From the sequence record OR906198.1: DNA of 64,000 nucleotides, one strand, 5' to 3'. Source of the stretch: Escherichia phage BP32. Below the pieces are notes generated by a model. The model ran no database searches, was not told where the DNA came from, and saw nothing but the letters and a program-made list of their open reading frames with translations. Position 1 is the stretch's first letter. Each line of letters opens with the position of its first letter. A program made the translations under genes and the position numbers. Shown in pieces: positions 55,016 through 57,312 of the stretch.

Positions 55016-55102
55016 GCGAGAATGGTCAAATTGGTAAAGGCACAGCACTTAAAATGCTGCGGAATGATTTCCTTGTGGGTTCGAGTCCCACTTCTCGCAC
55101 CA
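55016..55102 (+). tRNA. tRNA-Leu (anticodon TAA), type II, CCA encoded
   Basis: Acceptor GCGAGAA/TTCTCGC; anticodon stem CAGCA/TGCTG, loop CTTAAAA; long variable arm; T-loop TTCGAGT. Confidence 0.85.
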
Positions 55103-55107
55103 AATTT

Positions 55108-55181
<74 letters not shown>

Positions 55182-55191
55182 ATTTAATTTA

Positions 55192-55265
55192 CTCCGTGTA
55201 GCTCAGTTTGGTAGAGCGCCTGATTTGGGATCAGGAGGTCCAAGGTTCAAATCCTTGTATGGAGA
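55192..55265 (+). tRNA. tRNA-Pro (anticodon TGG), no encoded CCA
   Basis: Acceptor CTCCGTG/TATGGAG; anticodon loop TTTGGGA; T-loop TTCAAAT; only 2 nt before tRNA-Ser. Confidence 0.8.
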
Positions 55266-55267
55266 CT

Positions 55268-55352
55268 GGAGGCGTGGCAGAGTGGTTTAATGCACCGGTC
55301 TTGAAAACCGGCAGTCGCTCCGGCGACTCATAGGTTCAAATCCTATCGCCTC
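55268..55352 (+). tRNA. tRNA-Ser (anticodon TGA), type II, no encoded CCA
   Basis: Acceptor GGAGGCG/CGCCTCC; anticodon stem CCGGT/ACCGG, loop CTTGAAA; long variable arm. Confidence 0.85.
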
Positions 55353-55359
55353 CGTAATT

Positions 55360-55437
55360 TCGCTGATTTAGCTCAGTAGGTAGAGCAACTCACTTGTAAT
55401 GAGAAGGTCGGCGGTTCGATTCCGTCAATCAGCACCA
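55360..55437 (+). tRNA. tRNA-Thr (anticodon TGT), CCA encoded
   Basis: Acceptor GCTGATT/AATCAGC; anticodon loop CTTGTAA; T-loop TTCGATT. Confidence 0.8.
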
Positions 55438-55438
55438 A

Positions 55439-55515
55439 GGCCCTGTAGCTCAATGGTTAGCAGCAGTCCCCTCATAAGGGAAAGGTTACCAGTTCAAATC
55501 TGGTCTGGGTCACCA
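55439..55515 (+). tRNA. tRNA with CAT anticodon (Ile-lysidine type or Met), CCA encoded
   Basis: Acceptor GGCCCTG/CTGGGTC with one mismatch; anticodon loop CTCATAA; T-loop TTCAAAT; the T4 tRNA at this position is annotated Ile. Confidence 0.7.
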
Positions 55516-55524
55516 AATTAATTA

Positions 55525-55611
55525 GGGGAGTTATCCCGTAGAGGTAGCGGTGTGGACTGTAAATCCATTGTCATTGCGACTCGGGTGGTTCGACTCCACC
55601 ACTCCCCACCA
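55525..55611 (+). tRNA. tRNA-Tyr (anticodon GTA), type II, CCA encoded
   Basis: Acceptor GGGGAGT/ACTCCCC; anticodon stem GTGGA/TCCAT, loop CTGTAAA; long variable arm; T-arm GGTGG-TTCGACT-CCACC. Confidence 0.7.
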
Positions 55612-55657
55612 ATTTATGACTCGTCGTGAGACGCTCAGTTCTTTATTAGGGACTGAT

Positions 55658-56323
55658 ATGCATTTTTATCTTTATAAAATAACAAATAAAATTAATAATA
55701 AAATTTATATTGGTGTGCATTCTACCGAAAATTTAGATGATGGATATATGGGTTCTGGTAAATTATTAAAAAGAGCCCAAGATAAGTATGGTATAGAAAA
55801 TTTTTCTAAAGAAATATTAGAGTATTTTGATGATAAAGAATCTATGCTTGAAGCCGAGAAAAATATTGTCACAGAAGAGTTTTTAAATAGACCAGATGTG
55901 TATAATTTAAAACTTGGCGGTGAAGGTGGATGGGACCATATAAATATTCCTGGGATGCTAAACCAGAAGAAAGATGCTAGCTTAAAAGGAGCTAAATCGT
56001 TTAAATCACGTTTTGAAAATGATATTTTACTTCAAGAAAAATATCGTAAAATTGGTTCAAATGTATTTAAACGTTTGTGGTCAACTCCTGAATACAAGGA
56101 AAAATTTTTAAATAATAGCAGATTTTTAAATAAGCATCATACTCCTGAAACTATTAATAAAATGAAAGAAATTCACGCTAAAAATAATCATCAGAAAGGA
56201 GAAAAGAATTCCCAATTTGGTATGATGTGGATTCATTCATTAGATGAAAAAGTTTCTAAACGTATTAAGAAAACTGACCCAATTCCAGAAGGATGGTTTA
56301 AAGGTCGAAAAATGAAATTTTAA
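55658..56323 (+). CDS. segB: GIY-YIG homing endonuclease (SegB-like) inside the tRNA cluster
   Basis: N-terminal GIY-YIG module YLYKITNKINNKIYIGVHS...GYMGSGKLL; start placed at the ATG (55658) after tRNA-Tyr, not the track's 55550 which overlaps the tRNA. Confidence 0.75.
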   Translation: MHFYLYKITNKINNKIYIGVHSTENLDDGYMGSGKLLKRAQDKYGIENFSKEILEYFDDKESMLEAEKNIVTEEFLNRPDVYNLKLGGEGGWDHINIPGMLNQKKDASLKGAKSFKSRFENDILLQEKYRKIGSNVFKRLWSTPEYKEKFLNNSRFLNKHHTPETINKMKEIHAKNNHQKGEKNSQFGMMWIHSLDEKVSKRIKKTDPIPEGWFKGRKMKF

Positions 56324-56326
56324 TTA

Positions 56327-56402
56327 CGGGGCATAGCTCAGAAGGAAGAGCAAGGACCTTCTAAGTCCTAGGTCGTAGGTTCGATCCCTACTGCCTCGAC
56401 CA
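56327..56402 (+). tRNA. tRNA-Arg (anticodon TCT), CCA encoded
   Basis: Acceptor CGGGGCA/TGCCTCG; anticodon stem AGGAC/GTCCT, loop CTTCTAA; T-loop TTCGATC. Confidence 0.85.
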
Positions 56403-56418: not shown

Positions 56419-56769
56419 ATGAAAGGTAATGTTTATTTAGTAGTTCATGATTTAACATTCTATTTTAATCACAATGATACTGTTATTTCTGAACGTGTAA
56501 TTAATTTACTTTATCAGCATGCAGATTATGTTTATGTCGAAAACGAATACGGTCATTGGCAATTTCTCAAAAATCGTTCATTTGGTTTAGATGGTTACGA
56601 ATATTTTGAACGTAAAGACCTTTTAGATAAAATTCCGTTATCTACACAATATCAAAATCATAAGTCTTTATATAAATGCCGTCCAATTCGAAATGCTGAA
56701 TCTGCGTATGAAGCAATTGATTTATGGCGTAAACGCCGTGAACAGATTGATGCATTAAAAGAATATTAA
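56419..56769 (+). CDS. hypothetical protein (116 aa)
   Basis: ORF with RBS GAGGAAAA; no recognisable motif. Confidence 0.5.
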   Translation: MKGNVYLVVHDLTFYFNHNDTVISERVINLLYQHADYVYVENEYGHWQFLKNRSFGLDGYEYFERKDLLDKIPLSTQYQNHKSLYKCRPIRNAESAYEAIDLWRKRREQIDALKEY

Positions 56770-57079
56770 GAAGCCGGGTCGCTACCGGTAAGTCGTCGGA
56801 CTGATGTTCCCTGGGTAAGGACTGGCATTAACAAATCTTTACGATCTGTTAATGTCCCCTTACATCACAGCAGAAACGGCGCACCGAATTATCGATTCGA
56901 GGAAATATCTTTGCCGTAAGCCGAGTAGCGTTTTTGACGGAACGTTCGGATATGGTCGAGATATGGCCTTTTAAAATATTGAGTAGCGTCAACTGCTTAA
57001 TAACCGGGTTCGAATCCCGGCGTTTCGTACAAACACTTGCCTTAGCAGGTGGAACCCCGACAAGGTTGCCGCAAGGCTT
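56770..57079 (+). ncRNA. candidate stable small RNA(s), possibly the T4 species 1/2 (rnaC/rnaD) equivalents
   Basis: About 310 nt, GC-richer than surroundings, no convincing ORF; tRNA-like T-arm CCGGG-TTCGAAT-CCCGG; internal repeat GAGTAGCGT; ends at a strong terminator; lies just after tRNA-Arg as in T4. Confidence 0.35.
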
Positions 57080-57107
57080 AGCCCCAGCCGAAAGGTTGGG
57101 GCTTTTT
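57080..57107 (+). terminator. rho-independent terminator agccccagcc-gaaa-ggttggggct followed by TTTTT
   Basis: 10-bp stem, GNRA loop, T-tract read directly. Confidence 0.65.
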
Positions 57108-57240
57108 GATATCTAGGCCTTTCTGGACCTCTCTAGGCATCATTTAGTTTATACCCTTTATAATATATTATCCTATCCTTTAATTGCCCATCCCTGCCCT
57201 AGAATTCCCTAAAACTTTTTAAAAATTTTTTCACAAAACT

Positions 57241-57270
57241 GTTTACACCCTTGTCATTCCATGGTACTAT
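57241..57270 (+). promoter_or_regulatory. T4-type early promoter (GTTTAC-N18-TACTAT) with A/T-rich upstream element
   Basis: Same architecture and flanking words (ttcacaaa..gtttaca..tactat..atcaactactga) as the promoters at 53016 and 53346. Confidence 0.5.
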
Positions 57271-57312
57271 ACAACTATCAACTACTGATACAAAAACAAC
57301 TTGGAGAATGAA

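Follow-up and report, generated by a model that had tools for sequence, protein, structure and literature searches.

The rnaD-rnaC locus of Escherichia phage BP32 and a predicted tRNA-like fold for rnaC

In a stretch of 64,000 nucleotides (nt) from Escherichia phage BP32 (GenBank accession number OR906198.1), called the window below, we analyzed the region that lies downstream of the transfer RNA (tRNA) gene cluster. The window belongs to a T-even phage of the genus Tequatrovirus, with top matches about 98% identical. The tRNA cluster extends from 55016 to 56402, and its last member is tRNA-Arg (56327 to 56402; ARAGORN). The original prediction, made without database searches, placed at 56770 to 57110 a structured region poor in open reading frames (ORFs), thought likely to encode stable small RNAs and perhaps equivalent to rnaC and rnaD of phage T4. 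It is highly probable that positions 56766 to 57108 are the BP32 copy of the T4 rnaD-rnaC locus and that both RNAs are non-coding. The locus is already known: its products are the species 2 (rnaD) and species 1 (rnaC) RNAs of T4, known since the 1970s, and as a finding in the window it is a routine re-identification of two T4 genes. About 800 phage records contain the stretch, which in most of them is unannotated or labelled 'hypothetical protein'.

Positions 56766 to 57108 align collinearly with T4 rnaD (NC_000866, 71053 to 71171) and rnaC (70908 to 71046). The annotated rnaD/rnaC features of phage RB68 align with the BP32 stretch in the same collinear way. The homology covers both genes over their full length. 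For rnaC, 138 of 139 positions align with the T4 gene, with two substitutions and one 1-nt indel; in nhmmer the self match has E = 4e-40 and the T4 match an E of about 1e-37, and covariance model R1, built from relatives, scores the BP32 copy at 167 bits. BP32 rnaD scores 165 bits with covariance model R2, likewise built from relatives. The gene order agrees as well. rnaC closes the tRNA cluster, follows rnaD and precedes a terminator and a gene whose protein is 99% identical to T4 e.8, and it has the same neighbors, T arm, terminal stem, trailer and terminator as in T4. rnaD, immediately upstream of rnaC, shares with T4 rnaD (119 nt) the 5' hairpin, the closing stem, the conserved internal loops and the 3' end. 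The original prediction had named a lack of conservation with the T4 genes as grounds for giving up the equivalence; the sequence is conserved, and alignment, synteny and covariance models together bear the equivalence out. Small differences from T4 are present. BP32 rnaC has a linker shorter by one A, an A-to-G substitution in hairpin H6 and a U-to-C substitution in the long arm; no functional difference is visible, as far as can be seen. In BP32 rnaD several positions of the apical hairpin are changed, with compensation, and the 3' end reads ACCG where T4 has ACCA.

One element of the T4 order is absent. T4 rnaD starts 2 nt after tRNA-Arg, while in BP32 a 351-nt ORF of 116 amino acids (aa) separates the two (56419 to 56769, + strand, no Pfam match; missing in T4). 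The same arrangement is found in RB68 (RB68_139), Sf21, PhiZZ6 and one Mosigvirus. Since RB68 also carries this ORF and its rnaD is annotated nonetheless, we regard the ORF as a variable feature of the locus, and the membership of BP32 rnaD stands. The stop codon of the ORF abuts the rnaD start, and therefore the 5' end of BP32 rnaD cannot arise by tRNA 3' processing as it can in T4.

The region is GC-rich, as the original prediction had it: the GC content of 56766 to 57112 is 48.4%, compared with 35.9% for the whole window, and equals the level of the tRNA cluster (45 to 51%). Its folding is far stronger than that of shuffled sequence, with z = -6.7 for 56766 to 57112, -3.0 for rnaD and -3.85 for rnaC. 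The tRNA-type T arm and the strong terminator were found as described, the latter as a 10-bp (base pair) GC-rich stem at 57080 to 57103 followed by TTTTT, that is, a GC-rich hairpin and U run as in an intrinsic terminator. The internal 9-nt repeat is a different case. The 9-mer GAGTAGCGT does have two copies, at 56923 and 56981, and these are the only ones in the window. By itself the repeat lacks significance: shuffling the region gives some repeated 9-mer in 14% of cases, and distant homologues do not retain the first copy. The two copies also sit in different structural registers, and on these three grounds an internal duplication was rejected.

The region holds only ORFs of up to 60 aa, the longest at 56934 to 57116. 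A reading in which it encodes a small protein, either from this 60-aa ORF or from a 40-aa ORF at 56852 to 56974, has in its favor that both frames exist in the window. A 1-nt indel, however, cuts the 60-aa frame to 17 codons in T4 and RB68 and in three further loci (L008, L012 and L013). The TTG start of the frame is part of a conserved UUGACG loop described below, and substitutions follow compensatory base pairing and not a codon pattern. The chance of a small protein is negligible in our judgment, and the statement that no convincing ORF is present was confirmed.

ARAGORN calls a class-II-like tRNA-Lys(UUU) of 94 nt at 56937 to 57030, and the homologous stretch of Enterobacter phage KKP_3262 (L154, 173 to 268) is annotated as tRNA-Phe in GenBank. 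Two features of the window, the canonical T arm and an 8-bp pairing (ACGGAACG/CGUUUCGU), would fit a genuine but unusual tRNA gene. We find it hardly likely at all. The Rfam tRNA model (RF00005) gave no match at the gathering score or at E = 10, and a cloverleaf with D arm and anticodon arm at the threshold score of this family was not found. The internal acceptor stem that the call requires shows no compensatory change and is broken at two positions (in 12 of 22 and 7 of 22 sequences), while the competing terminal stem and hairpin that use the same bases both covary. In addition, the two gene callers give different amino acids, and the mature T4 RNA is 139 nt long and begins 45 nt further upstream. 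It was concluded that the ARAGORN tRNA-Lys is a false call whose acceptor stem is not supported by covariation. The Lys call here and the Phe annotation in KKP_3262 point to recurrent false tRNA calls: automatic callers sometimes read a tRNA in the 3' portion of rnaC, which is likely to be a recurrent annotation error in T4-like genomes and to matter for the annotation of the approximately 800 genomes. In the Rfam search of the region, nothing relevant was found at the gathering score or at E = 10; the best hit, tRNA-Sec, reached 16 bits where the gathering score is 47. Neither rnaC nor rnaD is represented by an Rfam family, a gap which the covariance models and alignments made here could fill.

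About 35 loci were taken into the comparative work. Homologues of rnaC were found in Tequatrovirus, Gaprivervirus, Mosigvirus, Moonvirus, Karamvirus and Kanagawavirus, in Marfavirus-type Klebsiella phages, in IMG/VR contigs and in one metagenome contig. Scans of IMG/VR contributed eight real members, and of the 92 loci hit by a degenerate rnaC pattern in a metagenome scan, one (L035) is a real homologue and the others are chance matches. For covariation, 30 distinct rnaC sequences were aligned to the covariance model and a consensus was derived with RNAalifold. In this consensus 96.8% of cells are paired, and double changes occur in 26 of 45 pairs compared with at most 8 in slid controls. Comparative folding had been proposed earlier as a check on the structured region, and it yields consensus folds supported by covariation for both RNAs.

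According to this fold, the whole of rnaC is predicted to mimic a tRNA, with a four-way junction in which a terminal acceptor-like stem (P1) stands beside a canonical T arm. The original prediction had recognized the T arm as tRNA-like. That stands, with the refinement that the arm appears to belong to a fold of the entire rnaC and not to an embedded tRNA. The two tRNA-like helices (consensus helices 1 and 8) are paired in 100% of the sequences, with one compensatory position each. In P1 the third pair changes from A-U to G-C (10 versus 20 sequences), and in the T stem the third pair is G-C, U-A or A-U depending on the phage. Variation in the T-loop is confined to positions that vary in tRNA T-loops. 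The mature T4 rnaC, as annotated, extends beyond P1 by 1 nt on the 5' side and by 2 nt on the 3' side, which gives independent support for the terminal stem. The long arm is closed by an invariant AGG/CCU stem (56900 to 56902 with 56967 to 56969), next to an invariant unpaired GG (56965 and 56966). Its stem sequences are wholly different in several genera (Kanagawavirus, Marfavirus-type phages and some Karamvirus copies), with pairing and hairpin retained. Moonvirus and Karamvirus, in which a tRNA is the upstream neighbor, likewise retain the AAUUAU ahead of the terminal stem. After P1, genomes of the T4 type continue with U-ACAA and Marfavirus-type genomes with U-CCAA, i.e., an encoded discriminator followed by CCA. 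The loci in which rnaC encodes U-CCA and not the T4-type U-ACA are L015, L016, L035, L116 and L118, all Marfavirus-type Klebsiella phages.

The likeness to a class II tRNA is therefore best described by parts. rnaC has a 7-bp end stem, a 5-bp T stem with a GGUUCGAAUCC T-loop, the 3' acceptor strand directly after it, a hairpin that ends one nt short of the T arm, where a class II tRNA has its long variable arm, and a location in a tRNA cluster. It differs from a tRNA in that the D and anticodon arms are replaced by a 70-nt arm and a 7-nt linker, and also in two U.U mismatches in the acceptor stem, the tail UACAA in place of NCCA and the missing Rfam tRNA match. Retention of the acceptor/T-arm module with replacement of the rest is shared with the tRNA-like domain of transfer-messenger RNA (tmRNA), with YrlA and with plant-virus tRNA-like structures. 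Unlike these other tRNA mimics, rnaC matches no Rfam family even at E = 10. It has neither the mRNA-like frame nor the tag peptide of tmRNA, and ARAGORN finds no tmRNA. Compared with the bacterial Y-RNA-like YrlA, the 5'/3' stem of rnaC is the acceptor stem itself and not a Ro-binding stem.

Two 6-nt apical loops of rnaC, UUGACG in the long arm (56934 to 56939) and CGUCAA in H6 (56987 to 56992), are complementary in all 30 distinct sequences. In the Marfavirus-type clade, with five distinct sequences, the loops read UUGGCG and CGCCAA, so that G-C stands in place of A-U by a matched change. The complementarity ends exactly at the loop edges, and the stems beneath the loops vary freely. The two loops probably kiss within the molecule, and this contact would lock the shape of rnaC. 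Examples of loop-loop kissing complexes are the HIV TAR-TAR* model and ColE1 RNA I/RNA II. The candidate in rnaC is like them in having two fully complementary 6-nt hairpin loops, and it differs in that the kissing would be intramolecular and is supported by sequence comparison.

In the rnaD consensus, which draws on 21 distinct sequences, pairing covers 93.8% of cells, and double changes are found in 18 of 32 pairs compared with at most 7 in slid controls. The stem of the 5' hairpin varies across genera (CCGG/CCGG, UCGG/CCGA or UCAGAA/UUCUGA). A conserved GUUCCCUG sits in the internal loop. The apical hairpin is swapped for an unrelated hairpin in L008, Dhakavirus and Mosigvirus. A hammerhead ribozyme or k-turn (CUGAUG...GAAAC) was considered for rnaD and rejected, as the helix order does not fit a hammerhead and no Rfam match was obtained; conservation of CUGAUG and CAGAAAC does not extend to the homologues of Karamvirus and Jiaodavirus. 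RNAduplex, run with full-length rnaD against rnaC to look for pairing between the two RNAs, returned uninformative whole-molecule alignments.

The rnaD model finds elements outside Tequatrovirus, Dhakavirus, Gaprivervirus and Mosigvirus (Table 1), among them two in Vequintavirinae, a myovirus group different from the T4-like phages. In several genomes the rnaD-like element begins a few nt after a tRNA, which is tRNA-Arg in T4, tRNA-Met in W70, tRNA-His in Moon and tRNA-Asn in VPA32. In Moonvirus and Karamvirus it lies 0.3 to 1 kb upstream of rnaC. Phage W70 (L146, 1497 to 1597), an rV5-type phage unrelated to T4, has a full rnaD-like element directly after tRNA-Met, as does A73. The W70 element has a shorter apical hairpin and compensatory changes in its 5' hairpin, with no difference in the conserved cores. 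These observations suggest that rnaD has spread horizontally with tRNA clusters. The Marfavirus-type element has a 46-nt insertion in the loop of its 5' hairpin. Taken together, the rnaC/rnaD pair appears to travel with the tRNA clusters of enterobacterial T4-like phages, in at least eight genera, and the Vequintavirinae appear to be reached by rnaD.

The 3' trailer that follows rnaC is nearly invariant across Tequatrovirus, Dhakavirus, Gaprivervirus and Mosigvirus, and MX01 and L125 carry a compensatory change in its third hairpin. Such conservation seems to exceed what a discarded 3' tail would need, and the trailer may act as a signal for processing or form a third RNA element with a function. 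The terminator, whose stem carries a compensatory C-G to G-C change in MX01, ends the tRNA/rnaD/rnaC transcription unit. In Moonvirus and Karamvirus, rnaC fills exactly the gap between tRNA-Trp (or tRNA-Met) and tRNA-Gly. From their distribution, rnaD, rnaC, trailer and terminator look like separable modules.

Table 1. Features of the BP32 rnaD-rnaC locus, with rnaD-like elements detected in other phages
Feature	Position	Strand	Basis and remarks
rnaD homologue (T4 species 2 RNA), ~120 nt	56766-56885	+	T4/RB68 alignment, model R2
rnaD 5' hairpin, G+CCGG / CCGG+U stem, loop GUCGCUA	56773-56789	+	Compensatory changes in 5/5 pairs
rnaD body	56792-56884	+	Folds and comparison of homologues
rnaD closing stem, GUCGUCG with CGGCG-C-AC	56792-56798 with 56877-56884	+	Core CGUCG/CGGCG invariant in 21 distinct sequences
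rnaD inner stem	56801-56803 with 56871-56873	+	Fold
rnaD apical hairpin	56813-56866	+	Variable
rnaD-rnaC spacer GAAUUA, 6 nt (T4: AAAUUA)	56886-56891	+	T4/RB68 alignment
rnaC homologue (T4 species 1 RNA), 138 nt	56892-57029	+	T4 alignment, model R1
rnaC P1, acceptor-like stem, 7 bp, CGAUUCG/CGUUUCG	56893-56899 with 57021-57027	+	100% paired in 30 sequences
rnaC long arm	56900-56969	+	Consensus helices 3-5, compensatory changes in 16/17 pairs
rnaC linker UUUAAAA, 7 nt	between long arm and H6	+	A-rich part conserved
rnaC hairpin H6, ~10 bp	56977-57002	+	Covariation in 7/9 stem pairs
rnaC T arm, CCGGG/UUCGAAU/CCCGG	57004-57020	+	One nt after H6; P1 3' strand follows directly
rnaC P1 3' strand (57021-57027) with 2-nt tail UA; genomic continuation CAA	57021-57029	+	Comparison with T4
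Conserved 3' trailer, hairpins 57034-57051, 57053-57067 and 57068-57077	57030-57079	+	Outside the T4 mature RNAs as annotated
Intrinsic terminator, 10-bp stem (7 G-C), GAAA loop, UUUUU	57080-57108	+	Terminator scan, stem 57080-57103
rnaD-like element, Moonvirus/Karamvirus/Marfavirus-type phages			rnaD covariance model, 25-33 bits
rnaD-like element, Vequintavirinae W70 and A73			rnaD covariance model, 79 bits

Presumably rnaD and rnaC are co-transcribed with the tRNAs. The T4 late-promoter core TATAAATA and a MotA box were not found between tRNA-Arg and rnaD; the nearest TATAAATA to rnaD is at 55939, within an upstream ORF of the GIY-YIG type. Host tRNA-maturation enzymes probably release both RNAs from the tRNA transcript, with an RNase P-type cleavage on the 5' side of the acceptor-like stem and 3' trimming back to this stem. 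We infer this route from the acceptor/T-arm module of rnaC, from the position of both elements flush with tRNA genes (rnaC in a tRNA-tRNA gap in Moonvirus and Karamvirus, rnaD-like elements after tRNAs) and from the mature ends of T4 rnaC, which flank the helix. Recognition of rnaC by tRNA enzymes such as RNase P, the CCA-adding enzyme and TrmA/TruB is likewise inferred from its position among the tRNAs. The T-loop motif GGUUCGAAUCC, a putative substrate for tRNA-type modification, is present in rnaC. Species 1 RNA was reportedly sequenced in 1975 and is said to carry T and pseudouridine; its precursor was reportedly used as an RNA-processing substrate.

Our best guess at a function, a tentative idea that we consider rather unlikely to be correct, is that rnaC accumulates in stable form and, with its tRNA shape, acts as ligand or decoy for some host factor that recognizes tRNAs on their acceptor/T-arm side. 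In this scheme rnaD would be a structured RNA of its own, with a putative partner bound by the conserved internal loops. The most specific version, in which rnaC would be a dedicated tRNA decoy held in shape by the kissing loop, with rnaD as its usual companion, and the two would bind or mislead the host acceptor/T-arm factor, is unlikely in our view. The proposed targets are a tRNA-targeting defence nuclease or toxin and a tRNA-processing or surveillance enzyme. For T4, the function of rnaC and rnaD has been stated as unknown (PMC3014915), and RNAC and RNAD have been classified as late RNAs, a classification validated by Northern blot assay (PMC9697503). A single convergent single nucleotide polymorphism (SNP) inside rnaD was reported in three T4-like phage lines evolved on a semi-permissive E. 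coli (PMC12685909), which is a hint of a host-related role. A decoy role, if true, would explain this convergent mutation as the phage adapted to that semi-permissive host.

Another possibility is that rnaD and rnaC are by-products with a role in cis only, as structured spacers that organize how the tRNA transcript and its 3' end are processed, or protect this processing. In that case they would accumulate simply from their stability, with no function in trans. We consider such a role, and such a passive accumulation, improbable. Both RNAs are always found within tRNA clusters or at their end, flush with tRNAs, and Dhakavirus, which has no rnaC, still has the trailer and terminator; the viability of T4 tRNA-region deletions would also fit. 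A spacer, however, needs none of the features that are invariant across genera with fully diverged stems, i.e., the loops, the GG and the A-rich linker. The presence of rnaD in the unrelated Vequintavirinae phages and the convergent rnaD SNP (PMC12685909) also argue against it. A third reading takes the two RNAs as base-pairing regulatory small RNAs of the Hfq type that act on host or phage mRNAs. They have been labelled 'small regulatory RNAs', without functional data (PMC9697503), and conserved single-stranded stretches are present, GUUCCCUG in rnaD and the A-rich linker in rnaC. Hfq-type small RNAs, in contrast, normally keep the terminator hairpin and U-tail, which the annotated T4 mature RNAs exclude, and the architecture of rnaC is that of a tRNA. 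This reading appears very improbable.

Several points weigh against the preferred reading of a T4-type locus with a tRNA-shaped rnaC and a decoy function. Discrete RNAs have been reported for T4, and the BP32 copies are known from their sequence. The 5' end of rnaD is uncertain by a few nt and could not be set in BP32, because the 116-aa ORF and not tRNA-Arg precedes it; the earlier caveat that exact boundaries cannot be fixed thus holds for this end, while the other ends can be placed by homology to T4. The covariation alignments were fitted to the models, which biases them towards the modelled structure. The support for the kissing loop is good comparative evidence, made up of one evolutionary event and strict invariance, and is not proof. 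The two U.U mismatches in the center of P1 are invariant, and together with the tail UACAA in place of NCCA they make an aminoacylation-type function unlikely in BP32. The binding partners of rnaC and rnaD are putative only. Finally, rnaC is precisely absent from Dhakaviruses, in which rnaD, trailer and terminator are present, and T4 mutants that have lost the tRNA region can grow on laboratory strains; from these two points the function would be dispensable in some settings. The consensus folds, the candidate kissing loop, the CCA tail encoded by Klebsiella phages and the wider distribution make the function of species 1 and 2 RNAs testable.

The tRNA set at 55016 to 56402 (+ strand) is unlike that of T4 and contains tRNA-Tyr(GUA). 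By ARAGORN, no tRNA-Gln was found in the whole window, while T4 has Gln just before Leu. A tRNA with the anticodon CAU is called Met by ARAGORN, and its T4 counterpart is annotated as Ile. Between tRNA-Tyr and tRNA-Arg lies an ORF (55658 to 56323, + strand) resembling GIY-YIG homing endonucleases and SegB (PF01541, E = 7e-6). In many relatives an extra gene of about 0.5 to 1.2 kb is inserted between the terminator and e.8, e.g., in RB68 and in locus L001 (2459 to 2932), and BLAST matches to the window are split into two or three pieces as a result. This gene is missing in the window (57109 to 57312), as it is in T4. A sigma-70-like promoter with an extended -10 element is found ahead of e.8 at 57242 to 57270.

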